From: a virus
Taxonomy: Duplodnaviria > Caudoviricetes
DNA: 63,709 nucleotides
Reading direction: 5' to 3' (one strand)
IMG/VR virus record: IMGVR_UViG_3300048850_000155
Location: 1-63,709 of that record
Shown: positions 10,117 through 24,818 of the stretch, piece after piece
How the letters are laid out: every line of letters starts with the position of its first letter
Numbering within the stretch: position 1 is the first letter of the stretch
Made by a program: the position numbers and the translations under genes
The notes under the pieces: model-generated
Seen by the model: only the letters and a program-made list of their open reading frames with translations
The model's database searches: none
What the model was told of the DNA's origin: nothing

Positions 10117-10208
10117 CCCTCCCCATCAAAATCATCCTTTGGCTCGGCGCGGCCTGGCTGGCGCTGCAGACCGCCACCACGGCCGGGCAGATGTTCGGAG
10201 TGCTGTGA

Positions 10209-11030
10209 ATGGCGATTTCACTCGCAAATCTCAAGAGCACCAAATCAAACCGGCCGCCGATCCTCGTGCTGTACGGCGTGGACGGTGTCGGCAAGACCAG
10301 CCTGGCGGCCGAGTTCCCGGACCCGATCTACATCCAGACGCCGGGCGAGCGCCCACCGTCTGATGTCGACCTGCCGTCGTTTGGCGTCATCGAGTCCTTC
10401 AACGACATGCTCGACGCCATCGGTTCGTTGCTGACCGAGGATCACGGCTACCGGACGTTCATCATCGACAGCCTCGACGGGCTCGAGCCGTTCGTTCAGC
10501 GGGCGACCGCACAGCGGATCGGCGCCGACTCCATCGACTCCAACGAGAAGGGCTCGCCGGCATCCTACGGCCGGGGCTATTCGGAAGCCGACACCGAGTG
10601 GAACGAGTACCTGTCCGGGCTGGAGGAACTGACGCGGCAGGGCATCGCCGTCGTGCAGCTCGCGCACCCGGACATCACCCGGTTCGACTCGCCGATCAGC
10701 GACCCGTACAGCCGGTACAGCCTCAAGCTTCACAAGCGCGCCAACGCCCTCGTGCGTGAGAAGTCCGACATCGTCGCCTTCATGAATTACCGGGTGACGC
10801 TCAAGAGCGTCGAGGCCGGCTTCAACAAGAAGGTGACGCATGGTGAATCCGGCGGAGACCGCCAGGTTCACCTCGAAGAACGGGCCGGGTACGTGGCCAA
10901 GAACCGCTACAACGCGCCCGCAACGCTCCCGTACAAGAAAGGACAAGGCTACTCCGAACTCTCAAAATACTTCCCTGCACCGACTGGCATTGTAGCGCAT
11001 GACGCCGATGCCCGGGCAGACGCTGCGTAG
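10209..11030 (+). CDS. AAA_24/Sak4-like recombination ATPase
   Basis: YGVDGVGKTS Walker A, FIIDSLD Walker B, AKNRY. Confidence 0.85.
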   Translation: MAISLANLKSTKSNRPPILVLYGVDGVGKTSLAAEFPDPIYIQTPGERPPSDVDLPSFGVIESFNDMLDAIGSLLTEDHGYRTFIIDSLDGLEPFVQRATAQRIGADSIDSNEKGSPASYGRGYSEADTEWNEYLSGLEELTRQGIAVVQLAHPDITRFDSPISDPYSRYSLKLHKRANALVREKSDIVAFMNYRVTLKSVEAGFNKKVTHGESGGDRQVHLEERAGYVAKNRYNAPATLPYKKGQGYSELSKYFPAPTGIVAHDADARADAA

Positions 11031-11047
11031 AAAAGGAAGCCTACTGA

Positions 11048-11554
11048 ATGGCCTCTTTAGGTGGAAGCTACAATCCGGATGCGGAACCGTCGTCGGGCTC
11101 GTTTGAGCCGCTCCCGGCAGACGACTACACCCTCGAAATCGTCGAATCCGATTACACCGCCAATGCCAAGGGCAACGGCATGGTGCTCAAGCTGACGACG
11201 CAGGTCGTCGGCGGTGAGTATGACGGCCGCAAGCTGTTCATCAACCTGAACCTCGAGCACGAGAACGAGAAGGCGCAGGACATCGCGCAGCGCGAGTTCG
11301 CCGCCCTCCGTCGTGCCGTCGGCGTGCTCAACCCTGGCGACAGTGAGGAACTGCACTTTAAGGCATTCCAGGCCAAGGTCGGCGTCGAGAAGCGCAAGGA
11401 CAACGGCGAGCTCACCAACCGCGTGAAGCAGTACTACTTCGACGGCGACGCGCCGGCGCCTGCCGCGGCACCCGCCAACGACAACCGGCCCGCTGTTCAG
11501 GAACAGCGCGCCACTGGCACGGCGAATAAGCGGCCCTGGCCGACGAGGAAGTGA
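11048..11554 (+). CDS. DUF669 family (putative ssDNA-binding) protein
   Basis: FEPLPADDY...LKLTTQVVGGEYDGRKLF; follows the Sak4-like gene. Confidence 0.8.
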   Translation: MASLGGSYNPDAEPSSGSFEPLPADDYTLEIVESDYTANAKGNGMVLKLTTQVVGGEYDGRKLFINLNLEHENEKAQDIAQREFAALRRAVGVLNPGDSEELHFKAFQAKVGVEKRKDNGELTNRVKQYYFDGDAPAPAAAPANDNRPAVQEQRATGTANKRPWPTRK

Positions 11555-11715
11555 TGGCAGCGCCGCAGATCGTATGGATCGCCCTGATTGCCATGGCGTT
11601 GGGCCTGAATTTCGCCATGCACGGCAAGCCGCGTGAGCCGCACCACTTTGGATATGCCGCTGTAGCGGCGGCCATCCAGGGCGGGATCCTCTACTGGGGC
11701 GGCTTCTTCTCCTGA
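11554..11715 (+). CDS. Small two-TM membrane protein
   Basis: MAAPQIVWIALIAMALG...LYWGGFFS, read by hand. Confidence 0.5.
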   Translation: MAAPQIVWIALIAMALGLNFAMHGKPREPHHFGYAAVAAAIQGGILYWGGFFS

Positions 11716-11761
11716 CTTCAAGGGGCGGCGTTCGCGCCGCCCTCCACCACAAGGAAATCCG

Positions 11762-12847
11762 ATGCGCTTATCCATTCAGCGCGCTGAGCTCGCGCGCCTG
11801 CTGTCGGCTGTCGACCGTGTGGTCGAAGCACGAACCACCATCCCGATCCTCTCGAACGTGCTCCTGACGGCCACAGACGGCCGCCTCGAGGCGAGGGGCA
11901 CCAACCTGGATATCGAAGCCACCGCCTCGGGCGAAGCCGTTGTCGAGGTCCCTGGCGCCATCACGCTGCCTGCGAAGACGCTCAAGGAGATCGCAGGCAA
12001 GCTGCCCAAGGATGCAGTCGTCACTATCGCAGCAGAAGCAGGAGCGGCGACGATCAAGTCCAGTCGGTCGCGCTTCAAGCTCGCGACGCTGCCGGTTGAG
12101 GATTATCCAGACCTCGCCAACGGCAAGTTCGACGTCACGTTCCCTCTGACGGTTGCGCAGGTCAAGACGCTGTTCGGGCGCACGGCCTACGCCATGAGCA
12201 CCGAGTCGACCCGCTACTACCTCAATGGCGTCTATCTGCACGAAGTGGACGGCAACCTGACGGCTGTCGCGACGGACGGCCACCAGTTGGCACGCGCTTC
12301 TGTGCCCGCGCCGCTGCGTAGCATCCCGTCAGCAATCATCCCGACACAGATGGTGGCGGAAATTCAGCGACAGGTCGTTGACATCGAGGTGTCGCTGTCC
12401 TCGTCGAAAATCCGCATTGCCGCGGGCGATACGGTCATCACGTCCAAGCTGATCGACGGGACGTTCCCCGACTATCAGCGCGTCATCCCGACTGGCAATG
12501 ACAAGCGCGCCGTGCTCGACAAGGCAGAGTTCGGCGCCTCAGTCGAACGCGTCGCGACCGTCGCCTCGGATCGAAGCCGCGCCGTGAAGCTTTCCTTGGC
12601 CAGTGGCGCCGCCGTGCTTAGCGTCCGCGGCAGCGAGGGTGGGACCGCGGAGGACGAGCTCGCAATCGAATACGACAGCGAGCCCGTCGAGATCGGCTTC
12701 AACGGCACGTTCATCGGGAACACGTTGCGCGTGCTCGATGCCGAGACGGTCGAGGTGGCGATCGGTGACCCCAGCGCGCCCGCGCTGTTCTCCGGCCTGG
12801 GCGACGCATCGAGCCTCCACGTCATCATGCCCATGAGGGTGTCGTGA
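11762..12847 (+). CDS. dnaN: DNA polymerase III beta sliding clamp (phage copy)
   Basis: TTIPILSNVLL, TRYYLNGV, VATDGH, SKLIDGTFPDYQRVIP, VIMPMR. Confidence 0.95.
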   Translation: MRLSIQRAELARLLSAVDRVVEARTTIPILSNVLLTATDGRLEARGTNLDIEATASGEAVVEVPGAITLPAKTLKEIAGKLPKDAVVTIAAEAGAATIKSSRSRFKLATLPVEDYPDLANGKFDVTFPLTVAQVKTLFGRTAYAMSTESTRYYLNGVYLHEVDGNLTAVATDGHQLARASVPAPLRSIPSAIIPTQMVAEIQRQVVDIEVSLSSSKIRIAAGDTVITSKLIDGTFPDYQRVIPTGNDKRAVLDKAEFGASVERVATVASDRSRAVKLSLASGAAVLSVRGSEGGTAEDELAIEYDSEPVEIGFNGTFIGNTLRVLDAETVEVAIGDPSAPALFSGLGDASSLHVIMPMRVS

Positions 12848-13068
12848 TGTGGGCCGATGACGACATCGAAGAGCTCGAAGACGCCCTCAGTGACTTGGAG
12901 GACCGGCTGTCCCTCGTCGCAGATGGCCTTGCAGAGATCCGGCGCGGTCACTTCGATCACGGCGCGACGCTCATTGAGGCTGCGCTCTCATCCAGAACGC
13001 CAGACCCGCACCTCGAGCGCAAGAAATACGCCGAAGCCATGGCCGCCAAGGAGGCGTCACATGCCTGA
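12844..13068 (+). CDS. Phage hypothetical protein
   Basis: Coupled ORF. Confidence 0.45.
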   Translation: MMWADDDIEELEDALSDLEDRLSLVADGLAEIRRGHFDHGATLIEAALSSRTPDPHLERKKYAEAMAAKEASHA

Positions 13069-13567
13069 CCTGCTATTCGAAGTCACGCTGCTCGAAAAAG
13101 AGCTGCAAGATCTTCTCGCCGCCTATCCTGAGCTCGCCGAGGACGAGCAGCTTCGCGCCGACACGATCGAGGGTGAGACCGGAGCACAGGCCGTCCTCTC
13201 GCGCATCATGAGCCAGGCGCTCGACGCCGAGGCAATGGCCGCCGCGGTGCGGGTGCGGATCAACGCGCTGGAGTCGCGTCAGGCGGCCTCACAGCGGCGC
13301 AGGGAGGCCATGCGCAAGTTCGCGCAGCGTCTCATGCTCGCGGGCGGCCTCAAGTCTCTGCGGCTTCCGGAGGCCACCCTGTCGCTATCGAAGGGGCGCG
13401 ACAGCATCGACATCACGGACGAGGCCGCGCTGCCGAGCTGGGCGTGGGCCGTCGACGTGGTGCGCAAGCCATCCAAGACCGCGATCAAGGAAGCGATCGA
13501 CGCCGGCGTCGCCGTTCCGGGCGCGCAGGTGAAGACCGGCGAGCAAACACTGATGGTGCGGACGTGA
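13061..13567 (+). CDS. Siphovirus Gp157-family protein
   Basis: DTIEGET...KPSKTAIKEAIDAGVAVPGA. Confidence 0.85.
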   Translation: MPDLLFEVTLLEKELQDLLAAYPELAEDEQLRADTIEGETGAQAVLSRIMSQALDAEAMAAAVRVRINALESRQAASQRRREAMRKFAQRLMLAGGLKSLRLPEATLSLSKGRDSIDITDEAALPSWAWAVDVVRKPSKTAIKEAIDAGVAVPGAQVKTGEQTLMVRT

Positions 13568-13720
13568 CCCTTCAGGAACAAACAGAAGCGCTCGTTGCGC
13601 TCAACGTTTTCCCCACCGTCCCGACCGGCATCGACGGCCGGAAGGTTCTCCGCTGCCCCCGTCTCGACGAGACGGCCGAGGAATGGGGCGAAGAGTGTTT
13701 TGAGATTGCCGAGGGCGAAT

Positions 13721-13933
13721 ATGGCCACGATCAAAATTGAATGGCTGACCGATGATGCCGACTGCGAAACGTGCGGGACATCGTGGGCCGAAGGAGCGCG
13801 CGTCTTCGTCGATGGCTCTATTGCCGTCGATTTAGAGCCGACCGCGTATTGCTGCGGTGGAGCGCACTACGACGAACGCGAGGTCTTCACGCGCATTCTG
13901 GAGCACCTTGGCCACACCGTGGAGCACGCCTAG
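13721..13933 (+). CDS. Hypothetical protein with CxxC motif
   Basis: DCETCG...CC. Confidence 0.5.
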   Translation: MATIKIEWLTDDADCETCGTSWAEGARVFVDGSIAVDLEPTAYCCGGAHYDEREVFTRILEHLGHTVEHA

Positions 13934-13936
13934 CCA

Positions 13937-14926
13937 ATGCCGCCCCTCCCGCAACTCGCGACGATCGCGCCGACGATCGCGGCCATCTACAAGCATTACG
14001 AGCAACGTGAGCAGTGGGAGGGCCGCACCCTTTCGATCTCTACCCTGGCGGATTCCTGCGAGCGCAAGCTCTGGTACGACTTCCACTGGGTGTCGCCGCC
14101 GGAACAACTCACCGGCCAGAAGCTCCGCCTTTTCGCGACGGGCAACATCGAGGAGGACCGGTTCATTGAGGAGCTTCGCGCCATCGGGTGCGAGGTTCAG
14201 GACCGCGACCCGGCCACGGGGCGGCAGATCACAGTGACCGCCGTCGGCGGTCACGTGAAGGGCAAGCTCGACGCGGAAGTCTTGGGCCTGCCGGAGGCGC
14301 CTAAGACGATCCACGTGGCCGAGATGAAGAGCCACAACGACAAGTCGTTCCGCAAGCTGCTCAAAGATGGAGTCGCGAAGGCGAAGCCAGAGCATTTCGG
14401 GCAGTTTCAGATGTACATGCATCTGCGACATCGTGATCGAGCGATCTATCTCGCGGTCAACAAGAACACCGACGAGCTCTACGCCGAGCGCGTGCACTAC
14501 GACGCTGAGTATTGCCTCCGGCTGATCGCCAAGGCGGAGCGCATCGTACGCGCGGCCGAGCCGTTGCGCCGGCTGCATGACGACCCGGACTCCAAGTCCG
14601 CATTCGTCTGCGGCTGGTGCAAGCACAAGCCGCACTGCCACGAAAAGGCATGGCCGCGCGTGAGTTGCCGCACGTGCCTGTATTCGACGCCAGAAATTGT
14701 CGGCGAACGCGGCGTCTGGACTTGCGGCCGGTGGGACAAACCGCTGACGCACGAAGAGCAGCAAGCCGGGTGCCCCGCGCACCTGTTCATCCCGGCGCTG
14801 GTTCCCGGCGAGCAAATAGACGCCTCGGAAGCCGATGAATGGGTCGAGTACCGGCTCGCTGACGGCAGCTTGTGGCGGGATGGGGCGGCGAACGACGACA
14901 CGGAGGTCAACCGTGCTGCAGCTTAG
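13937..14926 (+). CDS. PD-(D/E)XK (Cas4/RecB-like) phage exonuclease
   Basis: CERKLWY, GKLD, EMKS, QFQMYM, CGWC...C. Confidence 0.85.
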   Translation: MPPLPQLATIAPTIAAIYKHYEQREQWEGRTLSISTLADSCERKLWYDFHWVSPPEQLTGQKLRLFATGNIEEDRFIEELRAIGCEVQDRDPATGRQITVTAVGGHVKGKLDAEVLGLPEAPKTIHVAEMKSHNDKSFRKLLKDGVAKAKPEHFGQFQMYMHLRHRDRAIYLAVNKNTDELYAERVHYDAEYCLRLIAKAERIVRAAEPLRRLHDDPDSKSAFVCGWCKHKPHCHEKAWPRVSCRTCLYSTPEIVGERGVWTCGRWDKPLTHEEQQAGCPAHLFIPALVPGEQIDASEADEWVEYRLADGSLWRDGAANDDTEVNRAAA

Positions 14927-14944
14927 ACCGACGAAGGGCGCGTA

Positions 14945-16603
14945 ATGGCACTGCGATACTACCAGCGCGAGGCGGTTGATTCCGTCTTTGAATACTGGCG
15001 CGAGGATCCTGGGCATCCGCTGGTTGTGGCGGCCACCGGAACCGGCAAGTCGATCATGCAGGCCACACTCACCACCGAGCTGCTCGATGGTTGGCCAGAC
15101 ATGCGCATCATGAACACGACGCATGTCGTGGAACTGGTGGAGGGTAATTATCTCGAACTGATCGGCCTGAACCAGTTCGCGCCCGCCGGAATATGGGCCT
15201 CATCGCTTGGGCGGAGGCAGCGCAGCGCACAGGTTCTGTTCTCGCAGCTGCAGACCGTGCACGACAAAGCCGACCAAATCGGCCATGTCGACGTGCTGCA
15301 AATCGACGAGGCGCATCTCGTGCCGTTTAGGCAGTCCACGATGTACCGCAGACTCATCGATGGGCTACTGCGCATCAACTCTGACATGAAGGTATCGGGG
15401 TTTACAGCCACCGATTACCGGCTGGACGGAGGACGGCTCACCGAGGGCGATGGGCGGCTGTTCGACAAGGTAGTCTATAACTACGGCATTCGGCTTGGCA
15501 TCGACGACGGGTACCTTACCCCAATCACGAGCAAGCCAGTCGGTACCCACTATGACCTGTCTGGCGTCCGACGGTCGATGGGGGAGTACAAGGCAAGCGA
15601 CTACCGGGCCGCTGTTGATACAGATGCCCTCAATGCCCGCATCGTCGAAGAGGTTTTGGATGTTGAGGGGCGCCGAAAAAAGGCTCTGATCTTCTGTCGT
15701 GGGGTTGAGCATTCAGCGCGCATGGCAGAAGCGTTTCGCCGCGCCGGCCGTGCTGTCGAGGTGGTGCATGGCGGGACAGAGTCCGGCGAACGTCGCAGGT
15801 TGATCCAGCGCCTGAAAGACGGCGACCTATGGGGGCTTGCGAACGACAACATATTGTCGACTGGCACGAACATTGTGGGAGTCGATTTGATCGTCGATTG
15901 CTATCGCACAATGTCGGCCGGGCGATACGTTCAGCGCGTCGGGCGCGGCACCCGCGTTATCTGGCCGCCGGGGTTTTACCCGGAGGCCGTCGACGCTTCC
16001 GCCCGTCGGGCAGCCATTGCCTCGTGGGTTAAGCCGAATTGTCGATACATGGACTTCGCCGGCAACATCGACGAGCACGGGCCGGTTGATATGGTCAGCC
16101 CAAAGAAGCCGGGCAACGGGCAGGGCGAGGCTCCCATCAAGGTTTGCCCAAACTGCCATGAGCTGTTGCACGCATCGGCTCGCGTATGCACGTGCTGCGG
16201 CCACGAATTCGAGTTTGACCAAACGCCTAAGGTCGCAGTGAAGCCAAGTTATTCACCGATCATCTCCACCGAATACGAGAATACATGGCTCCCCGTGACC
16301 GGCCGCCGCTTTGCCTATCACGATAAGCCCGGCGGCACGGACAGCGTGTGCGTCCACTTCGGCTGCGGGTTCGTCACGCACAGAATGTGGGTCTGCCCGG
16401 AGCACAAAGGCTACGCCAAGCAAAAGGCCGACCGCTTCTGGATGCAGCACGGCGGGACGGCGCCGGCGCCGAAGAGCGTGCAGGAGTGGCTCGACCGGGC
16501 CGGAGAGCTACGGCCGACCGCAGAAATCAGCGTCCGGCCGAACGGCCGGTATTTCGAAGTTGTCGGCGTGAGGGATGGCGAAGAGATGAAGGAGGCAGCG
16601 TGA
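14945..16603 (+). CDS. SF2 DEAH helicase (RadD/YejH-like) with Zn ribbon
   Basis: LRYYQ, ATGTGKS, DEAH, TAT, QRVGRGTR, CPNC...CTCC. Confidence 0.92.
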   Translation: MALRYYQREAVDSVFEYWREDPGHPLVVAATGTGKSIMQATLTTELLDGWPDMRIMNTTHVVELVEGNYLELIGLNQFAPAGIWASSLGRRQRSAQVLFSQLQTVHDKADQIGHVDVLQIDEAHLVPFRQSTMYRRLIDGLLRINSDMKVSGFTATDYRLDGGRLTEGDGRLFDKVVYNYGIRLGIDDGYLTPITSKPVGTHYDLSGVRRSMGEYKASDYRAAVDTDALNARIVEEVLDVEGRRKKALIFCRGVEHSARMAEAFRRAGRAVEVVHGGTESGERRRLIQRLKDGDLWGLANDNILSTGTNIVGVDLIVDCYRTMSAGRYVQRVGRGTRVIWPPGFYPEAVDASARRAAIASWVKPNCRYMDFAGNIDEHGPVDMVSPKKPGNGQGEAPIKVCPNCHELLHASARVCTCCGHEFEFDQTPKVAVKPSYSPIISTEYENTWLPVTGRRFAYHDKPGGTDSVCVHFGCGFVTHRMWVCPEHKGYAKQKADRFWMQHGGTAPAPKSVQEWLDRAGELRPTAEISVRPNGRYFEVVGVRDGEEMKEAA

Positions 16604-17967
16604 TGGTGGATTGGATGCGAGATGCTGAGCATGGTCTCTGGGGTGAGGCTGCGCCGGCGAAACGAGAGATGGTCGCGTCAAGAGTTTTTGTTGTGATGGG
16701 TAATGACTATCCAGACGCCGTGTTCACGACAGAACATGAGGCCAATAGACATTGCGAAATGACATCGCAATCCTTCCTCGACGGCCGAGTCACACTCCAC
16801 GGTGGCGATAGCCGCGATATACTGAAGAAGCTGCCGGACGCGAGCATCGACTCCGTCGTCACGGACCCGCCCTATGCGCTGGTCTCGATCGGCAAGCGCT
16901 TCGGCAAGGCGGGCTCGGCGCCAGCGCAGCATGGCAAAGATGGGCTTTATGCCCGCGCCTCGGCCGGCTTCATGGGGCAGCAATGGGACACCGGCGAGAC
17001 GGCCTTTGCCGAGGAGTTCTGGGCCGAGGTGCTGCGCGTGCTGAAGCCCGGCGGCCATGTCGTCGCGTTCAGCGGCACGCGCACCTATCACCGCATGGCC
17101 TGCGCGATCGAAGATGCCGGTTTCGAGATCCGCGATCAGCTGGCGTGGACATACGGCTCGGGGTTTCCGAAGTCGCATTCAATGCGCCAAATCGGGCGCC
17201 CTGAGCTTGGCACAGCGCTCAAGCCAGCATGGGAGCCCATCTGTCTCGCCCGCAAACCCTTGATCGGCACGGTCGCGGAAAATGTTCTGCATCACGGCAC
17301 CGGGGCGCTGAATATCGATGGGTGTCGGGTAGGGACGGAAGGCGGGACACGCAAGGAGGCGAGCGCCGACAAGAGCACGACCGACAGCGTCGGAGGCTAC
17401 CTCAACGCGAAGGCGGGCGCACCTATAGACGCCGGCCGCTGGCCCGCCAATATTGTCCACGACGGCAGCGACGAGGTGGTGGCGTGCTTCCCGGAGACGA
17501 GCAGCGGAACGTTCGCTGCCTCACATGCCGATTCCGGCAAGTCTGCCGGGATTCTCGGAGCGATGTCGGGGCGCAATCGCGACCGTGACTTCATCGGCTC
17601 GTCCGGCTCCGCCGCTCGCTATTTCTACAGCGCCAAGGCAGACGCCAACGACCGACTCGGCTCAAAACATCCGACCGTCAAGCCCGTCGACCTGATGCAG
17701 TGGCTTGTCCGCCTCATCACACCCAAGGGCGGACTCGTGCTCGATCCCTTCGCCGGCACCGGCACAACGGGTGAAGCCGCCTGGCGCGAGGGCATGCGCG
17801 CCGTGCTCATCGAGCGCGAGGCGCAGTATCAGGCCGATATCGCCAAGCGCATGGAGCTTGCCGTTGCCGGCACGGCAACGCGCAAGGGGGCCATCGCTAA
17901 GGCAAAGCCGCCAGGCGCACCGCTGCCGCTGTTCGCCAACGACAACGAAATCGCAAAGGCGGCCTGA
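16603..17967 (+). CDS. DNA amino-methyltransferase (beta class, DPPY)
   Basis: VVTDPPY, HPTVKP, LDPFAGTGTT; core may start at ATG 16759. Confidence 0.9.
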   Translation: MVDWMRDAEHGLWGEAAPAKREMVASRVFVVMGNDYPDAVFTTEHEANRHCEMTSQSFLDGRVTLHGGDSRDILKKLPDASIDSVVTDPPYALVSIGKRFGKAGSAPAQHGKDGLYARASAGFMGQQWDTGETAFAEEFWAEVLRVLKPGGHVVAFSGTRTYHRMACAIEDAGFEIRDQLAWTYGSGFPKSHSMRQIGRPELGTALKPAWEPICLARKPLIGTVAENVLHHGTGALNIDGCRVGTEGGTRKEASADKSTTDSVGGYLNAKAGAPIDAGRWPANIVHDGSDEVVACFPETSSGTFAASHADSGKSAGILGAMSGRNRDRDFIGSSGSAARYFYSAKADANDRLGSKHPTVKPVDLMQWLVRLITPKGGLVLDPFAGTGTTGEAAWREGMRAVLIEREAQYQADIAKRMELAVAGTATRKGAIAKAKPPGAPLPLFANDNEIAKAA

Positions 17968-18770
17968 TGGCAAAACTGACCAAAGCGCAGGCGAAGGCAC
18001 ACGCCCAAGCCGTAGAGCTGCTCGCCAAAGACACGCTAACCGAGGATGACAAGGAATTCGTGCTCCGAAATTGGAACGAGGGAGCGAACCATGTGAATGG
18101 CGAGGCCGGCGCTTTCTTTACGCCATTCGACATGGCTTTCGACTTCGCCATTGACGCCGGCGGCGGGCGCATCATTGACCTTTGCGCCGGCATCGGAATG
18201 CTGTCTTTCGCCGTATGGTGCAGGTCACGTTGGAACGAGCGGCGGGCGCGCATCACGTGCATCGAGCGCAACGCCGATTACGTTGCTGTTGGCAAAAAGA
18301 TCCTGCCAGAGGCGACCTGGATCCATGCAGACGCGCTTGATGTCCTGGATCTGGATTTGGGGCACTTCGATTCCGCCATCAGCAATCCGCCCTTCAGCAA
18401 CATTAAGCGGTCGCGGAACGCGCCACGCTATACGGGTCGCGATTTCGAATTCCATGTCATCGACATCGCGGCGCACCTTGCAGACTATGGAGCATTCATC
18501 GTTCCGCAGATGTCAGCTGGTTTCAACTATTCTGGGCGAAAAGTTTACGAGCGGCACGGGGAGGGAAGGGCAGTTCAGTTTCAGAAACTAACTGGGCTCC
18601 ACTTTGATACTGGATGCGGGGTCGACACGGCCTATTACATGGACCAGTGGAAAGGCGTGTCGCCGTTGTGTGAAATCGTCTGTGTTGATTTCGCCGAGGG
18701 GCGCGCGGCCGCCATACCGAAGCCCGCCAACGACAACGTTCCTGACCTTCCACTCTTCAGGGCAGCATGA
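17967..18770 (+). CDS. DNA N6-adenine methyltransferase (gamma-like, NPPF)
   Basis: GAFFTP, IDLCAGIG, ISNPPF. Confidence 0.85.
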   Translation: MAKLTKAQAKAHAQAVELLAKDTLTEDDKEFVLRNWNEGANHVNGEAGAFFTPFDMAFDFAIDAGGGRIIDLCAGIGMLSFAVWCRSRWNERRARITCIERNADYVAVGKKILPEATWIHADALDVLDLDLGHFDSAISNPPFSNIKRSRNAPRYTGRDFEFHVIDIAAHLADYGAFIVPQMSAGFNYSGRKVYERHGEGRAVQFQKLTGLHFDTGCGVDTAYYMDQWKGVSPLCEIVCVDFAEGRAAAIPKPANDNVPDLPLFRAA

Positions 18771-19075
18771 ACATCCGCGAGCCATTGCCTAACCGTAGGC
18801 AGCACGAAGTGATCGAATTCACGCATGACTTCCACCAGTACACCGCCGGCGTCGGGCGCTATCCCGATGGCCGGCTGGCGGAAGTCTTCTTGGACTCCGG
18901 CAAGACGGGGACGGGCATGCAGATCAACGCACGCGATGGAGCTATCGCGATCAGTCTCGGGCTTCAGTGGGGCGCGCCGGTGGACGCCATACGGGAGGCG
19001 CTGTCGAGGCGCGCCGACGGTGCGGCCGAGGGGCCACTGGGGGCACTGTTGGATTTGCTGGGGGAGGGGGAGTGA
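18767..19075 (+). CDS. TSCPD-like domain protein (resembles class II RNR C-terminus)
   Basis: REPLPNRR...GRYPDGRLAEVFL...AIAISLGLQWG. Confidence 0.7.
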   Translation: MNIREPLPNRRQHEVIEFTHDFHQYTAGVGRYPDGRLAEVFLDSGKTGTGMQINARDGAIAISLGLQWGAPVDAIREALSRRADGAAEGPLGALLDLLGEGE

Positions 19076-19413
19076 TGGCAGGCGCCCCTCCTATGGAAGA
19101 ACCTGCCGACTGCGTCGTCTGCCACCGCCGCGCCATCGGCCTCGGCATCGGCTCGCCGCAGTCGCCGCGATGGCTTTGCACGGAGTGCGCGTTGATCGCT
19201 GAAGACATCCGCGCCGCTCGCCGCCTGGATCCATTTGAGGTGGCGGCGCTCAATGACGCCTGCGCTGAGGGCGGGGGCTACTTGGACGACCTGGACCGCA
19301 CGGACCTGGTTACGCTCAGCGAGCACGAGTTCCGCGAATTCTGCCGGCGCGTGGTCCTGGGATTTGGTGCCTCCATCAGGAAGCAAATTCGTGAGCACAG
19401 AGCTCCATTTTGA
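19075..19413 (+). CDS. Cys-rich phage hypothetical protein (DUF6511-like)
   Basis: CVVC...CTEC; GGYLDDLDRTDL...APF. Confidence 0.55.
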   Translation: MAGAPPMEEPADCVVCHRRAIGLGIGSPQSPRWLCTECALIAEDIRAARRLDPFEVAALNDACAEGGGYLDDLDRTDLVTLSEHEFREFCRRVVLGFGASIRKQIREHRAPF

Positions 19414-19816
19414 ACACCGGATTGGCAAGCAGCACGTCCGCTGAAATATCCAGGCTGCCCGCCAATGCCCGCGCCTCGCCGACGGCGATGGGTCTCTGCT
19501 CGATCTCAAGCTGAAGAATAGTTGCCTTATCCAAGCCGGACGCAACCGCGAGATCCGAGATCGTCATCTGGCGGTAAGACCGCATCGCCTTCAACGGCGA
19601 TGACCCTGCCCAGATCGCATCGAGAACCTCGTCCGGTGTCCCTCGCGCGGCCTGTGCGCCTTCAAATTTGAAGAGAGTGTCATGCATCCTAGCCTCCCCA
19701 GCTTGCGCCCGGCCAGTGGCCAAAACCCGCAATCCAACATCGCCGGAAATCACGGCTATGCAGGTGCGGTACAGCACATGCTGTGTCCGGAGATCCCTTC
19801 TTGGTCCGGCGACCAT
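19376..19816 (-). CDS. XRE HTH protein, HigA-antitoxin-like
   Basis: PDEVLDAIWAGSSPLKAMRSYRQMTISDLAVASG...LAGSLDI; start uncertain. Confidence 0.6.
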   Translation of the reverse strand: MVAGPRRDLRTQHVLYRTCIAVISGDVGLRVLATGRAQAGEARMHDTLFKFEGAQAARGTPDEVLDAIWAGSSPLKAMRSYRQMTISDLAVASGLDKATILQLEIEQRPIAVGEARALAGSLDISADVLLANPVFKMELCAHEFAS

Positions 19817-19911
19817 CTACTCCTGGTAGCGATTGCACCCCAGTCGTCGATGAGGGCGAAGATCATCCGTCAGGCATCTGAGCTTGGGGACGAGCAGCGG
19901 GGGAGGGCGGA

Positions 19912-20898
19912 GTGAGCGTGCAGATTATCACCGGCGACTGCCGCGACGTTCTCCGCGCGCTGCCCGACGAGAGCGTGCATTGCGTGGTTACGAGCCCGCC
20001 GTATTTCGGCCTGCGTGATTACGGTGTCGCCGGTCAGATCGGCCTTGAGCCGACGCCGGACGAATTCGTGGCTGAGATGGTTGGCGTATTCCGTGACGTG
20101 CGGCGGGTCCTGAGGGATGACGGCACGCTGTGGCTGAACCTGGGCGACAGTTATGCAAGCGATCCCCGGAAGGGACGCGTGACTGCGACGCAGTCGGGGA
20201 AGGCGGCCTATCTTGCGGGACAGGCGAACCAGTGCCGCTTTATTGGCGGCAGCCTAAAGCCCAAGGACTTGATCGGCATTCCGTGGCGCGTCGCCTTCGC
20301 CCTGCAGGCGGACGGCTGGTATCTGCGCAGCGACATCGTTTGGCACAAGCCGAACCCGATGCCGGAGAGCGTCACCGACCGACCCACGAGCGCACATGAG
20401 CATGTCTTCCTGCTCGCGAAGTCTGAGCGGTATTTCTACGATGCCGAGGCGGTGCGTGAGAGGGCGGTGTCCGACGACGATAAGAAGTGGACCGACGGCG
20501 GTTCAGAAAAGCAACGTGGGCACGGTAGGCGGCACGCTGGCTTCAACGGGCGATACGCTGAGCGCATCGCTATCGATGGCGCTCCGACGCACCGCAACCT
20601 CCGCAACGTCTGGACGATCGCAACAAGACCGTTTCCCGAAGCCCATTTCGCAACCTTTCCCCCTGACCTAGCGGAGCGCTGCATCGAGGCTGGCTGTCCA
20701 GCCGGCGGCACCATACTTGATCCATTCGGCGGCGCCGGCACCACCGGCCTCGTCGCCGACCGCCTCGGCCGCAACGCCATTCTGATCGAGCTCAATCCCG
20801 AATATGCGGATATGGCCCGGCGCCGGATCAAGGGCGACGCGCCGCTGTTCGCTCAAGTTTCCGCGAACGACAACTACGCAGCCAAGGCAGCCGCATGA
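19912..20898 (+). CDS. DNA methyltransferase (beta class, SPPY; likely N4-C)
   Basis: VTSPPY, HFATFP, LDPFGGAGTT. Confidence 0.92.
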   Translation: MSVQIITGDCRDVLRALPDESVHCVVTSPPYFGLRDYGVAGQIGLEPTPDEFVAEMVGVFRDVRRVLRDDGTLWLNLGDSYASDPRKGRVTATQSGKAAYLAGQANQCRFIGGSLKPKDLIGIPWRVAFALQADGWYLRSDIVWHKPNPMPESVTDRPTSAHEHVFLLAKSERYFYDAEAVRERAVSDDDKKWTDGGSEKQRGHGRRHAGFNGRYAERIAIDGAPTHRNLRNVWTIATRPFPEAHFATFPPDLAERCIEAGCPAGGTILDPFGGAGTTGLVADRLGRNAILIELNPEYADMARRRIKGDAPLFAQVSANDNYAAKAAA

Positions 20899-23210
20899 CC
20901 CCCCTCGTCTCCACCCCCGCCCAGCCTTCCCCCTACAACCTCGTCGGCTCGACGCTCGTCGACCAAGGCTTTTCGGCCATACCCTGCCGGCCCGGATCCA
21001 AGCGCCCGGGCTCGTACAGCTTCGGGCAGTGGTATGGCCGGAATGACTGGCAGCAATACTGCAACCGCGCCCCGACCGACTTTGAAACTCGGGCGTGGGA
21101 GAAGTGGCCAGACGCCGGCGTGTGCGTTGCGCTCGGCTTTGCAGGCGTCGTCGCCGTCGACGTCGACACGGATGACCCGGCGCTTTGCGCGGCACTCGCG
21201 GCCGTCATCCCCGAATCCCCGATCATGAAGCGCGGCCAGAAGGGCTTTACGGCCTTCTACCGCGGCGGCCCGGAAATCAAGGCGGCGGCCTTCAACGTCA
21301 ACAACGAACGCGTCGTCGATCTCCTGGCGCACGGCAAGCAGACCGTCGTGCCGCCCACGGTCCACCCCGACACCGGTCAGCCGTACCAGTGGATCGGCGA
21401 CGCGCTCGAGACGGTGTCGCCCGACGCGCTGCCCGAACTGCCCCCAGACATCGCCGAGCGCATTGCGGAGGCGCTCGAGCCGTTCGGATATGCCCCGACA
21501 CAAACCCCTCGCGCCCAGGGCGACGGCTACGGCCACAGCATCTGGCGTGACCTGAACGCACGCGCCCTCCAGGACCTCGACGCCTGGGTGCCCGCGCTCG
21601 ACCTGCCCAAGCTCAAGCGCACGTCGCGCGGCTATGTCGCCGTGCCGTTCTGGCGTCCGTCCAATCGCGGTCGCCCGACGCACCAGCGCAACCCGAACCT
21701 CAAGATCACCACGTCGGGCATCAAAGACTTCCACGACGGCGATCGCGGCTATACGCCTCTCGATCTCGTCATGGCGGCTCTCGGCTGCGGCCTGGACTTC
21801 GCCGACCAGTGGCTGCGTGAGCGGCTCGGGTTTCAGGAGCCGGACCTCTACGGCCTGGAGCCCTGGTTTCCCAAAACGGCGCCACTGCCCGACGCGCCAC
21901 AACCTGCCACACCGGCCCCCGTCGCCGCGCCTCGTGGGACCGTCAATCCGTTCACGGCAGCCTCGGCTGGCGGGCTGCTGCACGTCATCCACGATTGGGT
22001 GATTGCCAATGGTCGCCGCCCGGTGCCGGAGTTCGCGACCATGGCCGCTGTGACGTTCCTGGCGGGGCTGTATGGCCGTCGCTGCGTCGGGCCTACCGGC
22101 GCCGGCCTCAACGTCTACTTCGTTGGGCTGGGCTCCTCTGCCCACGGAAAGGGCCTCCCGCTGAAGGCGCTCAAGACGCTCGCCGTCGACTGCGGTTTGC
22201 AGCGCATGGTCATTGCCGGCGACTTCACCGCAGACTCGGCGATCGAGCGGGCGCTTCGCCGCGACCCGTCGCTCGTCGTGGCCTGGGATGAGTTCGGGCT
22301 CGTGCTCCAAGGCGTGAACGGCCGCAACGCGTCCTCCTGGACGCGCACGGTTCGCCGCGCGCTCCTGGAGGTCTACAGCCTGTCAACGGACATGTGGTCG
22401 GGCAAGCAGTATGCAGACCCCAAGCGAGACGACCCGGAGCCGGTCTATTGCCCCACGCTGTCCATCCTGGGCATGACCACGCCGAGCACGTTCTACGACG
22501 GCCTGGCCGACGGCAACCTGTCAGACGGTTTCCTCAACCGCATGACGGTGATCCACGCCACCGAGACGCCGGAGCGCCGCAGGGCACCGCCGGTGATGGT
22601 GACACCGCCCTCGCTGCAGGCGGCAATTAAGGCCGCCGCCAATCAGCAGTTCGGCACCGGCAACCTTGGTGGCGCGCGCATGGCCAATGCTCGTCCACCC
22701 ATGCACGTCGTGCCATGGGAGAGCCCAGCAGTCGAGGCGCGCTGGCTCGAGATCGAGGATTGGCAGATAGCCGAGATCGAAGAGCGCGGCGGCGTCGAGG
22801 GCATCATCGGGCGAACGGCCGAGCAGACGATCAAGCTCGCCACGATCCGGGCACTGTCACGCGACGGCGTCACCGCCAAAGTCACGCAGGACGATATCGA
22901 ATGGGGCTATGCCATCGTGCAGCGCTCGCTCGACTGCCTCGACCGCGGTGTGCGTGACCACATGGCGTCGTCAGACTTCGAGTCGCTCTGCAAGGCCATC
23001 CTGGCGGCCCTGCACAAGAGCAAGGACGGCAGCATGCCCATGTCGCACCTTCTGCGCGTCAAGGGCATCTCCAAGGCCGAGGACCGGCATGTCAACGCCG
23101 CCGTCGACCGGCTCGTGCGGGTGGGTGAGGTCATGCGCACCAGGGGCACGCGCGGGGGCGCCGGCGGGCTCCGTCTAACCAACGCAATGGAGGCCGCTGA
23201 GGCTGCTTGA
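20895..23210 (+). CDS. Bifunctional primase-polymerase fused to DUF3987-like helicase
   Basis: VAVDVD, VVPPTVHPDTGQPYQW; GSSAHGK, WDEFG, GFLNR. Confidence 0.88.
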   Translation: MTPLVSTPAQPSPYNLVGSTLVDQGFSAIPCRPGSKRPGSYSFGQWYGRNDWQQYCNRAPTDFETRAWEKWPDAGVCVALGFAGVVAVDVDTDDPALCAALAAVIPESPIMKRGQKGFTAFYRGGPEIKAAAFNVNNERVVDLLAHGKQTVVPPTVHPDTGQPYQWIGDALETVSPDALPELPPDIAERIAEALEPFGYAPTQTPRAQGDGYGHSIWRDLNARALQDLDAWVPALDLPKLKRTSRGYVAVPFWRPSNRGRPTHQRNPNLKITTSGIKDFHDGDRGYTPLDLVMAALGCGLDFADQWLRERLGFQEPDLYGLEPWFPKTAPLPDAPQPATPAPVAAPRGTVNPFTAASAGGLLHVIHDWVIANGRRPVPEFATMAAVTFLAGLYGRRCVGPTGAGLNVYFVGLGSSAHGKGLPLKALKTLAVDCGLQRMVIAGDFTADSAIERALRRDPSLVVAWDEFGLVLQGVNGRNASSWTRTVRRALLEVYSLSTDMWSGKQYADPKRDDPEPVYCPTLSILGMTTPSTFYDGLADGNLSDGFLNRMTVIHATETPERRRAPPVMVTPPSLQAAIKAAANQQFGTGNLGGARMANARPPMHVVPWESPAVEARWLEIEDWQIAEIEERGGVEGIIGRTAEQTIKLATIRALSRDGVTAKVTQDDIEWGYAIVQRSLDCLDRGVRDHMASSDFESLCKAILAALHKSKDGSMPMSHLLRVKGISKAEDRHVNAAVDRLVRVGEVMRTRGTRGGAGGLRLTNAMEAAEAA

Positions 23211-23214
23211 AAGA

Positions 23215-23410
23215 TGCTTGCAAAACGGCCTGGAAATTTCTGCAAGTTGCAATCACGTGGTTGTAAGATTGTAAAAAATCAGACCCCTTTTACAACCGCT
23301 GAACCCTTATCTGATATAGTGTTCATATATATTAATTGTAAATATAGGGGGGTAACACATCTACCCTAAAAAGAGGGTCTAATTTCTGGAGGAGTGTATA
23401 ATTACAAGAT
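23215..23410. other. Putative replication origin
   Basis: AT-rich gap after primase-helicase with repeated TTGCAA/TTGTAA/TTACAA. Confidence 0.5.
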
Positions 23411-23412
23411 CA

Positions 23413-23808
23413 GTGAAAAGGGATGCGCGCCGCATCCCGGAATGGAAGCTCCAGCACGCAGCGGTGCGGGCTCTCTTCCAAGCCAAGAAGGCGGGCATGC
23501 CCATCCGATGGGCGGCCAGCATGAACGCCGGACGGCGCGGCCCACGTGACCGAGCCATAGCCCAAGCCACCGGGCTGGCACCCGGCGAGCCCGATCTAAA
23601 CATCTACCTGCCCGGGGCTCGCCTCCTGCAAATCGAATACAAAACCACGGACGGGGCGCTATCCGACGAGCAGATCGAGTCGCACGCCGAGATCCTTGAG
23701 CTCGGTTTTGCCCCGGTCGTCGTGCTCGCGCCGGCCAACGAAGACGAAGCCGCGGCGATGACGTTGGCCCTTGTCCACCAGCGCCTCGCCACCACCACGG
23801 ATGCCTGA
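23413..23808 (+). CDS. VRR-NUC-type nuclease
   Basis: EWKLQ...GEPDL...IEYKT..G.LS.EQ. Confidence 0.8.
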   Translation: MKRDARRIPEWKLQHAAVRALFQAKKAGMPIRWAASMNAGRRGPRDRAIAQATGLAPGEPDLNIYLPGARLLQIEYKTTDGALSDEQIESHAEILELGFAPVVVLAPANEDEAAAMTLALVHQRLATTTDA

Positions 23809-23861
23809 CCGCCGTAGCCTTGCGCCGGCGCCGAGCACCTCCTCCGATTTTCGGAGTTTCT

Positions 23862-24818
23862 ATGACTGACCTTTCCGCTACCACCACCCTCCCCACCAAC
23901 CAGCCCCTCGCTCTCCTGGCCGCTCTCACCGCCGCAAAAGACATCGCCGCGATCGAGCGCGACGCCGGGCAGATCTTCCACGACCTCGGCAAGCTCGCCT
24001 TTAACGGCAAGGTTCCCGGCAAGAGCGTCTGGTATTCCATGCGCAATCCGAACGGCACGTGGTCTCAGGTTCGCTGCCAACAGCGTGAGGCGAAGGTCCG
24101 CTACGAGGCCGCTGCCGAGGCGATCCGGACCGACGAGCGTAGGCGCGTTGTTGTGCAGGCTCTCGTGGCGCGTGAGCCGCGATTCAACCCGGCCAGCCGG
24201 CATTCCCTTGCCGCTGGGCTGGAAGACCTCACGCGCCATTTCTGGGGCGCCAAGGCGATCTCCACCACGAGGCGTAATGGCGTCACGCTGGCGGCCGTCC
24301 CGAGCATCGACAACGGTCCGACGCCGGAGCGGATGCGGCAGGCGGCGAACGACAACGATCCGCGCGCTGGTGGCGTGTTCCGCAGTCCCTTCCATCGAAT
24401 GTTCGAGCGCGGCCAACTCGACAAGGACGAGGCGATCAACGAGCTGCTCTATTCGGCTGGCGTGCGGTTCTACCAGGATTGGTACTACAGCGGCTTGGCC
24501 GGCGGCCTCGGCTCGTTCGACTACTCCAAGCCGATCGTCGACAGCAGCGGCGGTGAATCCAGCCACATGCCGCGGACGATGCGTGAGGCTGCGCGGAGGC
24601 AGGCATGGCGGGCAGCGGTTGCTCTGCTCGCCCCGATCGAGCTGCGCATGATCGAGGCCGTAGTATTGGGGGAAAAGACGGTCGAAGAAGTTTGCGTCAA
24701 AATCACTGGGACAGGGCGCGTGTCGAATGCCCGCAGAGAAGCCAAATCAATCTTGGTTCAGGCTCTTACAAACCTCGTGAAGCTCTACGGCCTCGCCGGG
24801 TTTAAACAAGTGGCCTAG
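23862..24818 (+). CDS. Putative late-gene regulator (Q-like/DUF6456-like)
   Basis: Last early gene before late leader; LYSAGVRFYQDW; C-terminal sigma4-like helical domain. Confidence 0.55.
   Translation: MTDLSATTTLPTNQPLALLAALTAAKDIAAIERDAGQIFHDLGKLAFNGKVPGKSVWYSMRNPNGTWSQVRCQQREAKVRYEAAAEAIRTDERRRVVVQALVAREPRFNPASRHSLAAGLEDLTRHFWGAKAISTTRRNGVTLAAVPSIDNGPTPERMRQAANDNDPRAGGVFRSPFHRMFERGQLDKDEAINELLYSAGVRFYQDWYYSGLAGGLGSFDYSKPIVDSSGGESSHMPRTMREAARRQAWRAAVALLAPIELRMIEAVVLGEKTVEEVCVKITGTGRVSNARREAKSILVQALTNLVKLYGLAGFKQVA

Follow-up and report, generated by a model that had tools for sequence, protein, structure and literature searches.

Full-length ssrA-tag-like tails on DNA methyltransferases and other proteins of a temperate phage and its relatives

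In Escherichia coli, the adaptor SspB binds the first part of the ssrA tag, and the first alanine of the real tag is supplied by the charged tmRNA. ClpX substrates of the C-motif 1 type include CtrA and MuA, while the Caulobacter beta-class N6-adenine methyltransferase CcrM is kept short-lived by the ATP-dependent protease Lon. In C-motif 1, ClpX reads the Ala-Ala-type C-terminal ends of natural substrates (PMC12723719). A DNA-encoded Caulobacter ssrA tag makes fusion proteins unstable, and deletion of sspB slows their loss (PMC9393093, PMC1233412). In mycobacteriophages with integration-dependent immunity, the repressor and the integrase each end in an ssrA-like tag, and the repressor loses its own when integration takes place inside its gene (PMC9262239). 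Among the cited sources, these shorter tags are the nearest precedent for the tails described below; they also bear on the preliminary description of this DNA, whose author knew of no characterisation of such tails as a system.

The window (the whole stretch of DNA that was analysed, 63,709 nucleotides) belongs to a temperate phage, probably of root-nodule-type bacteria, and tags for comparison were taken from stand-in Rhizobiales. Similar tails had been reported at the ends of a nuclease and three methyltransferases (MT1, MT2, and MT3); the ORF list and codon reading recover all four, in frame and at those ends. The relevant features are as follows.

11048..11554, + strand: SSB-like protein (phrog_6015, phrog_2300)
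11762..12847, + strand: phage-encoded beta sliding clamp, DnaN type (phrog_947; Pfam DNA_pol3_beta)
13937..14926, + strand: Cas4-domain exonuclease (phrog_1990, E 2.2e-99), ending in GAANDDTEVNRAAA
14885..14926, + strand: nuclease tail AANDDTEVNRAAA and stop, from alignment with the relative L171
14945..16603, + strand: helicase, ending in EEMKEAA (ORF/codons, Pfam)
16603..17967, + strand: MT1, DNA methyltransferase (N6_N4_Mtase; Pfam PF01555, E 4.4e-29), ending in PLPLFANDNEIAKAA; start probable
17935..17967, + strand: MT1 tail ANDNEIAKAA and stop, with PLPLF (17920-17934) directly before
17967..18770, + strand: MT2, DNA methyltransferase (phrog_3820, E 8.4e-103; weak Pfam MTS match, E 5.8e-6), ending in KPANDNVPDLPLFRAA
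18726..18770, + strand: MT2 tail ANDNVPDLPLFRAA and stop, from codons
19912..20898, + strand: MT3, DNA methyltransferase (N6_N4_Mtase; Pfam PF01555, E 2.9e-48), ending in DAPLFAQVSANDNYAAKAAA
20836..20850, + strand: MT3 DAPLF motif, from homologue tails
20863..20898, + strand: MT3 tail ANDNYAAKAAA and stop, from codons
20895..23210, + strand: primase (Prim-Pol + DUF3987), ending in MEAAEAA (ORF/codons, Pfam)

The motif (A/P/S)ANDN, followed by 4–8 residues and AA-stop, closes the three neighbouring methyltransferases, and the Cas4-type exonuclease, for which Pfam gave no match, ends in AANDD...AAA; by codon reading, each of the methyltransferases has ANDN and the nuclease has ANDD. All four tails terminate in AA or AAA before the stop, and their lengths are 10, 11, 12, and 14 residues, as compared with 12–13 for the real tags of the stand-in genomes (ARAGORN). 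The tail-bearing ORFs encode 267–454 residues. The four proteins had been called unrelated, which does not hold throughout: MT1 and MT3 both fall in Pfam N6_N4_Mtase, and CcrM (6PBD) is a PDB match of MT1 (E 6.1e-16) and among the PDB relatives of MT3. The probable start of MT1 at 16603 is inferred from a TGATG overlap with the helicase stop; the MT2 stop overlaps the start of the following gene, and the MT3 stop that of the primase, in each case as ATGA. The tail of MT3 is the nearest copy of a Rhizobiales tmRNA tag among the four (compare ANDNYAPVAVAA and ANDNYAPVAQAA, from ARAGORN). MT3 homologues, drawn from 160 loci, mostly stop a few residues past a PLF motif, which marks the MT3 tail as an add-on. 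In MT2, an LPLF motif (18747-18758) sits within the tag mimic, and the same tail sequence recurs in L171.

ARAGORN recovered the tags ANDNYAPVAVAA, ANDNYAPVAQAA, ANDNNARVAVAA, and ANDNNAKEYALAA at four of five stand-in host tmRNA loci; the proposed likeness to the alphaproteobacterial tag holds against these tags from four stand-in genomes, all of which open with ANDN, and the distance between ANDN and the C-terminus agrees as well. An sspB gene (PF04386; nearest solved structures 2NYS, 2QAS, and 2QAZ) adjoins ssrA in all three stand-in genomes searched, which represent candidate hosts. In the window, ARAGORN returned no genes and Rfam no families at gathering score, so that no tmRNA-like RNA appears to be encoded there. 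Three gene ends of the 63.7 kb window fit the tail DNA pattern, AACGACAAC-N(12-36)-GCNGCN-stop (read from codons). Across 28.8 Mb from five Rhizobiales/Paracoccus genomes, the pattern has six matches, every one a tmRNA tag frame, and the reversed-pattern control has four. Likewise, host proteins from crude gene calls, some 100,000 residues in all, contain no ANDN, as compared with 28 in 52,099 residues from related phages. In the genomes and proteins covered, the tail pattern is restricted to phages; in host-like genomes, only tmRNA genes carry it.

In the six-frame translation of the window, AND[ND] occurs nine times, four of these lying 10–14 residues ahead of a stop. The 9-mer AAYGAYAAY is found eight times against 1.59 expected, a count reached in none of 100 shuffles, and all seven copies inside called genes read as N-D-N from their coordinates. 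The 57,149 residues of the window and eight related loci contain 31 copies of ANDN (0.30 expected). Fourteen of the 31 copies lie 11–15 residues from the C-terminus, with eight at exactly 12, and 10 of these 14 precede an AA terminus, as compared with 40 of 248 genes overall. A sample of 47 phage tails was selected solely by NDN and a final alanine; the residue preceding NDN is nonetheless alanine in 34, and the one before that is alanine in 24 and proline in 14, so that unselected positions reproduce the (A)ANDN of the real tag. Tail length in this sample has its mode at 12 residues (15 tails, with nine each at 11 and 13), and 41 of the 47 terminate in AA. The mimicry is confirmed as real and far above chance. 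Tail codons vary synonymously (GCC/GCG/GCA, AAC/AAT, GAC/GAT) and the motif keeps its coding frame, which places the conservation at the protein rather than the DNA level; frame-independent DNA conservation, named in the preliminary description as the outcome that would speak against degrons, was looked for and not found.

The tails had been presented as peculiar to DNA-modifying enzymes of this replication module. They are present there, but the phenomenon is far wider, extending to many proteins of related phages and to the cultured Sinorhizobium phage NV1.1.1, in which annotated CDSs carry tails (e.g., the Dmt methyltransferase, ending in VAANDNQPVKEAA). Overall, tails occur on at least five methyltransferase families, plus portals and nucleases; carriers include N6_N4, C5, phrog_3820, and phrog_799 methyltransferases as well as helicases. 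The restriction to DNA-modifying enzymes cannot be kept, as the largest Pfam class in the 47 tailed proteins is portal (10), followed by N6_N4 methyltransferase (6) and C5 methyltransferase (4). This distribution on unrelated protein families points to repeated, independent origins of the tails, that is, to convergence. The nuclease tail of the window is present as described but is second-hand. In L171, a close relative, a C5-methyltransferase gene with the tail ANDNTEINRAAA lies between nuclease and helicase, and the nuclease itself ends in RDGTAEEREAA; the DNA of the window's nuclease tail matches the tail of that C5-methyltransferase gene nearly base for base, and this nuclease tail is thus the remnant of a methyltransferase gene next to it. 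Breakpoints of homology between the window and L171 coincide with tails, at 14892 and 17935, and from 17935 the window matches L171 again, there behind a different methyltransferase gene. Across the junction, the ANDN codons differ synonymously (GCC AAC vs. GCG AAT). A 312-aa protein of L171 is assigned to phrog_799, a DNA methyltransferase.

Short motifs of another kind also occur near these termini. Beta-clamp-binding motifs are short, follow a Q/x-L-x-L-F type consensus, and lie in disordered terminal regions, and the DAPLF of MT3 looks like such a motif; the leading Q of the consensus is absent from all copies in the window (PLPLF, DLPLF, DAPLF). Within 138 distinct MT3 homologue tails, 56 contain [LM]F, against 8.8 expected from shuffles, and some Firmicute homologues terminate in QTNLF or QQKLF. 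The phage-encoded clamp, in which the N-terminal, central, and C-terminal DNA_pol3_beta domains match at E 7e-34, 4.4e-25, and 8e-24, is a possible partner of these LF motifs. Further short C-terminal motifs (IPF, APF, LF) are found in related phages. The integrase of the window ends in LPLVKKT, without a tag. ANDN itself also occurs away from C-termini, namely in SSB tails, in helicase tails, at N-termini, and internally, with some copies 25–29 residues from termini reading IPF or KK. The SSB-like protein of the window has one such copy at 11474, within a C-terminal tail that stops 26 residues further on and not with AA; this tail is kept in relatives. ANDN may therefore have a partner or use that does not need a terminal AA.

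At a probability of roughly 0.55, we favor the reading in which the phage genes themselves encode mimics of the full-length ssrA tag, which would recruit SspB and ClpXP. Each would be an unstructured C-terminal extension of two parts, an (A/P)ANDN element imitating the opening of the alphaproteobacterial tag and a free Ala-Ala carboxy-terminus imitating the portion read by ClpX, separated by the distance found in real tags. Host SspB would dock on ANDN and tether the tailed protein to ClpXP, and ClpX would grip the AA-COOH end, leading to unfolding and degradation; the putative contact between ANDN and SspB-alpha is extrapolated from E. coli. Phage methyltransferases would thereby be kept scarce or short-lived, and in related phages other early proteins and unassembled portal subunits might be treated likewise; the purpose may be a timer, clean-up, or a decoy. 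Several features weigh on this reading. Most tail middles are hydrophilic (TKDTQ, HGKQE, SGSEAE), whereas real tags have a YAPVAV-type middle. Directly before AA, K, R, or E often takes the place of L or V, and recognition by ClpX may be weak as a result. The prominence of portals is awkward, a structural protein destined for destruction being hard to explain. Overall, the interpretation first offered for this region is partly supported, and the data suggest that these phages deliberately consign certain proteins of their own to the protein-degrading machinery of the host.

Tails of this kind could instead be by-products of nucleotide-level constraints at gene boundaries, with AA derived from the ribosome-binding sites or spacers of coupled downstream genes and GCC-AAC-GAC-AAC serving as short conserved linkers that promote exchange of methyltransferase cassettes. 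Many AA ends do combine AGG or GGAGG with GCNGC(A/G)TGA and overlapping starts (ATGA, GTGA, or TGATG), some (those in [KR]EAA) coincide with AAGGAGGCAGCGTGATG, a nearly ideal ribosome-binding cassette for the following gene, MT3 homologues from many phyla commonly have AA-stop with GCATGA, and the breakpoints with L171 fall exactly at tails. We nevertheless consider this origin very unlikely. Ala-Ala closes 10 of the 19 early-module genes of the window; at overlap-type gene ends it occurs in eight of 13 early genes but in none of 16 late genes, which are equally coupled, so that translational coupling or gene overlap does not explain the terminal AA. In NV1.1.1, AA ends are similarly found in 17 of 49 and six of 20 non-structural CDSs as compared with two of 30 structural ones, and 16 of 41 AA-ending tails (counted by eye) have no start codon overlapping the stop. 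Nor would such constraints account for synonymous differences within ANDN codons, even across the L171 junction, or for a 9-mer that is in frame every time within genes; moreover, the 12 bases of such a linker are too few for homologous exchange, and its position 30–45 bases upstream of the next start lies beyond any ribosome-binding site.

The remaining alternatives accept the motif as a protein signal. ANDN may be a short motif on which something besides SspB docks, for instance a protein of the phage replisome or of host DNA metabolism, with the tag likeness partly coincidental and no degradation through ANDN. Such docking would suit the copies whose position would be pointless for a C-terminal degron: two in helicase tails with SSB-like D(S/E)IPF ends, others in SSB-like tails with KPW.KK ends and at N-termini (MTIAANDN, MSKAVANDN). 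It would also suit phages that encode a clamp and an SSB-like protein and use the other short C-terminal motifs. However, it leaves unexplained the C-terminal spacing of ANDN with its excess of AA ends, the preceding residues that rebuild (A)ANDN, and the tmRNA tag as the sole host sequence matching the pattern, and we regard it as unlikely. Alternatively, SspB and ClpXP may recognise the tails, with the selected function being saturation of adaptor and protease, such that other phage proteins are stabilised or quality control linked to trans-translation is blunted. In the window, 10 of the 19 early genes have ANDN and/or AA ends, and in NV1.1.1 so do 25 of 99 CDSs; such numbers per genome, together with the tails on portal proteins, would fit a decoy. 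Copies of ANDN that lack a degradable end could also occupy SspB and yet escape destruction. Yet methyltransferase abundance is unlikely to suffice for titrating a protease, proteins made just for destruction are costly, and this proposal needs every step of the degradation reading plus one more; it is decidedly unlikely.

Set against described systems, the proposed tag mimics share with the alphaproteobacterial tmRNA tag of the SspB/ClpXP pathway the (A)ANDN opening, the Ala-Ala carboxy-terminus, and a length of 11–14 residues, and in candidate hosts ssrA and sspB are neighbours. They differ in being encoded in the gene's own frame, and so on every molecule, whereas the tmRNA tag is added by trans-translation to stalled products; their middles diverge and are mostly polar, and the window is without a tmRNA-like RNA. 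CcrM belongs to the same Pfam family as MT1 and MT3, both of which match its structure, but it is a host cell-cycle enzyme degraded by Lon and is not known to have a tag-like C-terminal signal. Natural C-motif 1 substrates of ClpX are not known to carry an adaptor-binding ANDN at tag-like spacing, whereas the phage tails have both elements. Engineered Caulobacter ssrA fusions have the same architecture as the natural phage genes; they were built in the laboratory with the host tag unaltered (PMC9393093, PMC1233412), whereas the phage tails occur naturally and diverge in the middle. The mycobacteriophage tags consist of just a C-terminal "-LAA or similar" on repressor and integrase, whereas the present tails comprise the whole tag, including its adaptor-binding start, and are carried by methyltransferases, portals, and nucleases (PMC9262239).

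The window (63,709 bases, 62.6% G+C over the whole virus record) encodes a large terminase that shares 60-70% identity with its counterparts in Rhizobium and Sinorhizobium phages. The gene at 62633-63709 is integrase-like, judging by its N-terminal sequence. Searches with ARAGORN and Rfam found no tRNA, tmRNA or Rfam family in it, and among catalogued phages it has no close DNA relative, matching them in short methyltransferase stretches only. Four products of its early/replication operon carry C-terminal tails resembling the tag that tmRNA (ssrA) adds to proteins.

Early/replication operon of the window, with tails
10209-11030, + strand, Sak4-like annealing protein
11048-11554, + strand, SSB-like protein
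11762-12847, + strand, DnaN-type sliding clamp, complete, three domains (Pfam DNA_pol3_beta N-terminal, central and C-terminal; phrog_947)
13937-14926, + strand, Cas4-domain exonuclease; tail GAANDDTEVNRAAA
14945-16603, + strand, helicase
16603-17967, + strand, MT1, N6_N4 methyltransferase; tail PLPLFANDNEIAKAA
17967-18770, + strand, MT2, phrog_3820 methyltransferase; tail KPANDNVPDLPLFRAA
19912-20898, + strand, MT3, N6_N4 methyltransferase; tail DAPLFAQVSANDNYAAKAAA
20895-23210, + strand, Prim-Pol primase

All four tails claimed in the preliminary description are present at these gene ends and in frame. Six-frame translation of the window contains nine copies of AND[ND], four of them 10-14 residues ahead of a stop. 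At the DNA level, AAYGAYAAY occurs eight times against 1.59 expected, a count reached in 0 of 100 shuffles, and each of the seven in-gene copies is read as N-D-N (by arithmetic on the coordinates of called genes). A methyltransferase target site or other frame-independent DNA motif was rejected on this basis. Codon usage is consistent with conservation of the protein: across 31 ANDN motifs from the window and its relatives, Ala is spelled GCC 16, GCG 13 and GCA 2 times, Asn AAC 51 and AAT 11 times, and Asp GAC 25 and GAT 6 times, so that the synonymous variation proposed earlier as a check is indeed found.

Five genomes carrying relatives of the phage's genes served as stand-ins for the host. 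All five encode an alpha-type tmRNA, for which ARAGORN read tags in four: ANDNYAPVAVAA (Microvirga), ANDNYAPVAQAA (Bradyrhizobium), ANDNNARVAVAA (a Rhizobiales isolate with a related prophage) and ANDNNAKEYALAA (Ferirhizobium). The expected likeness to a host ssrA tag is borne out in these stand-ins; the MT3 tail, ANDNYAAKAAA, shares its first six residues and its AA end with the Microvirga and Bradyrhizobium tags. Because the first Ala of a tagged protein is supplied by the charged tmRNA, a real tagged protein reads (A)ANDN, and it is this longer form that the phage tails reproduce. The adaptor gene sspB lies beside ssrA in all three of the Rhizobiales stand-in genomes searched, at a distance of at most about 600 bases (loci L301, L302 and L303, in genomes G004, G001 and G002, respectively). 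Ferirhizobium has two tandem tmRNA matches (L169/L170, G002:C3:5086-5852), whose tags, translated by eye, are ANDNNAKEYALAA and ANDNNAKGYALAA.

In the stand-in genomes, the tail pattern is confined to tmRNA. The DNA pattern AACGACAAC-N(12-36)-GCNGCN-stop has six matches in the five stand-in genomes (28.8 Mb), all six being tmRNA tag frames, with four matches for a reversed-pattern control in the same DNA; three gene ends, read from codons, fit it in the 63.7 kb window. ANDN itself is absent from approximately 100,000 host residues (crude gene calls on 400 kb of DNA), as against the window and its relatives, which have 28 copies in 52,099 residues. Capture of a tmRNA gene fragment was rejected, given the absence of any tmRNA or Rfam family in the window.

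Tails of this kind characterize the phage group. The window and eight related loci, obtained via primase and MT3, contain 31 copies of ANDN in 57,149 residues (248 gene calls after removal of duplicates, with MT1 uncounted, having been missed by the crude gene filter), where 0.30 would be expected. Of the 31 copies, 14 are 11-15 residues away from the C-terminus (exactly 12 in eight cases), and AA ends are found on 10 of these 14 genes versus 40 of the 248 overall. Carriers among close relatives are mostly methyltransferases of different families (N6_N4, C5, phrog_3820 and phrog_799); in the close relative L171, the C5 enzyme ends in ILPANDNTEINRAAA and the phrog_799 enzyme in VAANDNEIAKAA, and C5 carriers also appear in related loci L172 and L173. 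The cultured Sinorhizobium phage NV1.1.1 (OP484858.1, host S. meliloti) has tails on annotated coding sequences, including its Cas4-like nuclease homolog (GAANDNEPGVTNA), its 'Dmt' methyltransferase (VAANDNQPVKEAA), and three others (FAANDNTETVTKKAA, AVNDNAAPAQAGAA and QAANDNVPVEQKRVA). An 83-residue protein without a Pfam match (L174 13702-13953; L175 10815-11066) ends in AGLAANDNNPPVAMAVAA, which comes closer to a full genuine tag than any other tail observed in the relatives. A general feature of the MT3 family was rejected as an explanation, as just 2 of 160 homolog tails, from many phyla, contain ANDN; two more contain VNDN.

Run against viral contigs, the DNA pattern matched at least 119 stretches at no fewer than 80 loci, including at least about 25 tails ending long ORFs and at least about 10 probable true tmRNA genes. 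Gaps were in frame in 41 and out of frame in 27 of the matches listed, a comparison that offers no clean null because in-frame stops fall only at gene ends. Relatives and listed viral matches together gave 47 non-identical tail-bearing proteins, selected on NDN and a final A alone. Several features outside that selection recur among them: Ala directly precedes NDN in 34 of 47, the position ahead of that one holds Ala in 24 tails and Pro in 14, and tail length peaks at 12 (15 tails, with nine each at 11 and 13). These tails converge on unrelated protein families; Pfam assigned 10 portals (nine PF04860, one PF05136), six N6_N4 and four C5 methyltransferases, with the remaining matches to single helicases, nucleases, a lysozyme and others. 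When viral contigs were scanned for ANDENYA-type (gamma) tails, no such protein tail was found among the 80 loci listed, 74 of which are genuine ANDENYALAA tmRNA genes at prophage ends; true ssrA genes dominate that sample, which makes it uninformative. Bacterial genome contigs, scanned with a pattern designed to avoid alphaproteobacterial tmRNA genes, gave 12 in-frame cases among the matches listed, mostly tmRNA genes of other phyla, with one likely protein tail in an alphaproteobacterial MAG (TPANDNRQPETSDSRAA) and one probable chance match in Streptomyces; this shows only that randomly sampled bacterial DNA rarely contains such tails.

Homology with L171 (primase 98% identical) stops at 14892 and restarts at 17935, and both points are tail starts. 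The DNA of the window's nuclease tail matches the end of the L171 C5 methyltransferase gene (ANDNTEINRAAA, then TAG ACC), whereas the L171 nuclease ends in RDGTAEEREAA; a methyltransferase tail therefore moved in frame onto the nuclease by deletion or exchange, the clearest case of the kind. The ANDD spelling in the nuclease tail is one base from ANDN. At the junction, one phage reads GCC AAC GAC AAC and the other GCG AAT GAC AAC, with different methyltransferase genes ahead. The tails behave as portable modules. Our reading is that the junctions result from the motif being common to many cassettes and are not what the motif is for. This region exchanges its methyltransferase genes as cassettes (breaks at 14892/14893 and 17934/17935 relative to L171); L171 has its C5 and phrog_799 enzymes where the window has the fused nuclease tail and MT1, and lacks a counterpart of the window's MT3 region.

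Gene overlap could account for the AA end in part: at many AA ends the DNA reads AGG or GGAGG and then GCNGC(A/G)TGA, in overlap with the start of the next gene, and such ends are common on MT3 homologs in many phyla. As the whole story, this is argued against by their distribution. AA ends close 10 of 19 early genes in the window (7800-25000) but 1 of 26 late genes (25000-48000; the portal), although the modules may differ merely in history; with overlapping start codons, the counts are 8 of 13 early and 0 of 16 late. In NV1.1.1, AA ends occur on 17 of 49 genes in the early half and 6 of 20 other accessory genes versus 2 of 30 in the structural block. Further, 16 of 41 AA-ending tails (counted by eye) have no start codon overlapping the stop, and AA ends are fewer in host genes (18 of 292 and 1 of 40 calls) than in phages (39 of 224). 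Ending in Ala-Ala is a feature of the early module in general, and NV1.1.1 splits likewise.

Other short C-terminal motifs accompany these. An 84-residue acidic protein without a family match (7832-8086, +) ends in EIDGNVIPFRAAA, an SSB-C-terminus-like IPF followed by RAAA. The small, conserved phrog_19707 protein (18967-19413, +; a family without an assigned function) always ends in (R/S/E)APF, a further conserved C-terminal motif, with homologs in L171, L172, L173, L110 and OP484858.1 (21587-21973). Helicase homologs in relatives end with two NDN motifs and then an SSB-tail-like (D/E)x(I/V)(P/A)F, e.g. FRPANDNVPSASNDNRPAAEILEDSIPF (L082 4546-6258, L172 6567-8309, L173 5605-7254 and OP484858.1 16935-18677); the window helicase is without an NDN or IPF-type end and closes in KEAA.

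Published work reports that a DNA-encoded Caulobacter tag destabilizes fusion proteins, with sspB deletion slowing their loss (PMC9393093, PMC1233412), and that ssrA-type C-terminal degrons are read by ClpX (PMC12723719). From these we infer that host SspB would dock on ANDN and ClpXP would take the AA end of the tail. Residues before AA are polar (AKAA, FRAA, KEAA), which, by analogy with engineered tags, suggests weak direct recognition by ClpX and hence strong dependence on the adaptor. A complex prediction for SspB residues 1-125 (Ferirhizobium) with the last 40 residues of MT3, run without controls, scored 0.00 and was given no weight. Alternatively, ANDN may bind some partner or serve some role apart from degradation. 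Three observations keep this alternative alive: no Pfam class is larger than the portals among the 47 sampled proteins; ANDN is also found elsewhere than at C-termini (in tails of SSB-like proteins and helicases with other end motifs, at N-termini and internally); and tail middles are unlike those of real tags. If the tails are degrons, possible purposes include holding methyltransferases at low levels or making them short-lived, clearing early proteins that leak in lysogens, removing portal subunits left unassembled, and occupying the protease.

Each window methyltransferase also has an LF motif beside or inside its tail (17920-17934, 18747-18758 and 20836-20850), in layouts such as PLPLF-ANDN and ANDNVPD-LPLF-RAA, with ANDN-DLF in relatives. 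This conserved (P/D)-L-F motif lies downstream of the methyltransferase domain, and inside the tag mimic in MT2 and in related loci L082 and L110. Among 138 distinct MT3-homolog tails, 56 contain [LM]F versus 8.8 in shuffles, and some Firmicute homologs end in QTNLF or QQKLF, like clamp-binding motifs. The window's SOS-response-associated peptidase (SRAP; 61198-61947, -) ends in PPQVLSLF, a near-canonical clamp-binding pentapeptide at the extreme C-terminus. The phage also supplies a clamp of its own. A limited literature search found no paper dealing with clamp-binding motifs in methyltransferases of bacteria or phages. That a putative clamp motif and a tag mimic overlap raises the speculative idea that clamp binding could shield the enzyme from degradation. 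If clamp binding and SspB/ClpX engagement exclude each other on a tail of 15-25 residues, a methyltransferase on the clamp at the replication fork would be protected and a free copy destroyed; methylation would then be limited to phage DNA that has just been replicated, and enzyme leaking in lysogens would be cleared. In a broader version, with AA ends on about half of the early proteins, the entire early proteome of these temperate phages would be ClpXP-labile. We consider this clamp-gated stability, proposed from motif positions, improbable.

In Alphaproteobacteria, DNA methylation state is tied to cell-cycle control, and a phage methyltransferase lingering in a lysogen could harm its host, a possible rationale for the tails. 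They would also provide a ready natural set of graded degradation tags for genetic work in Rhizobium, Sinorhizobium and Caulobacter. Our literature search found no natural SspB-dependent substrates beyond tmRNA-tagged products in Alphaproteobacteria, and a search without supplementary files found no publication describing phage proteins with ANDN-type tails. Should the tails function as their sequences suggest, they would be such SspB-dependent substrates, phage-supplied and spanning at least five methyltransferase families plus portal proteins. The closest precedent is the ssrA-like tagging of mycobacteriophage repressors and integrases (PMC9262239), in which the C-terminal (-LAA-type) part of the tag alone is present. 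Use of the host's waste-disposal label as a built-in control on the phages' own proteins would, if true, exceed those short -LAA-type tags.
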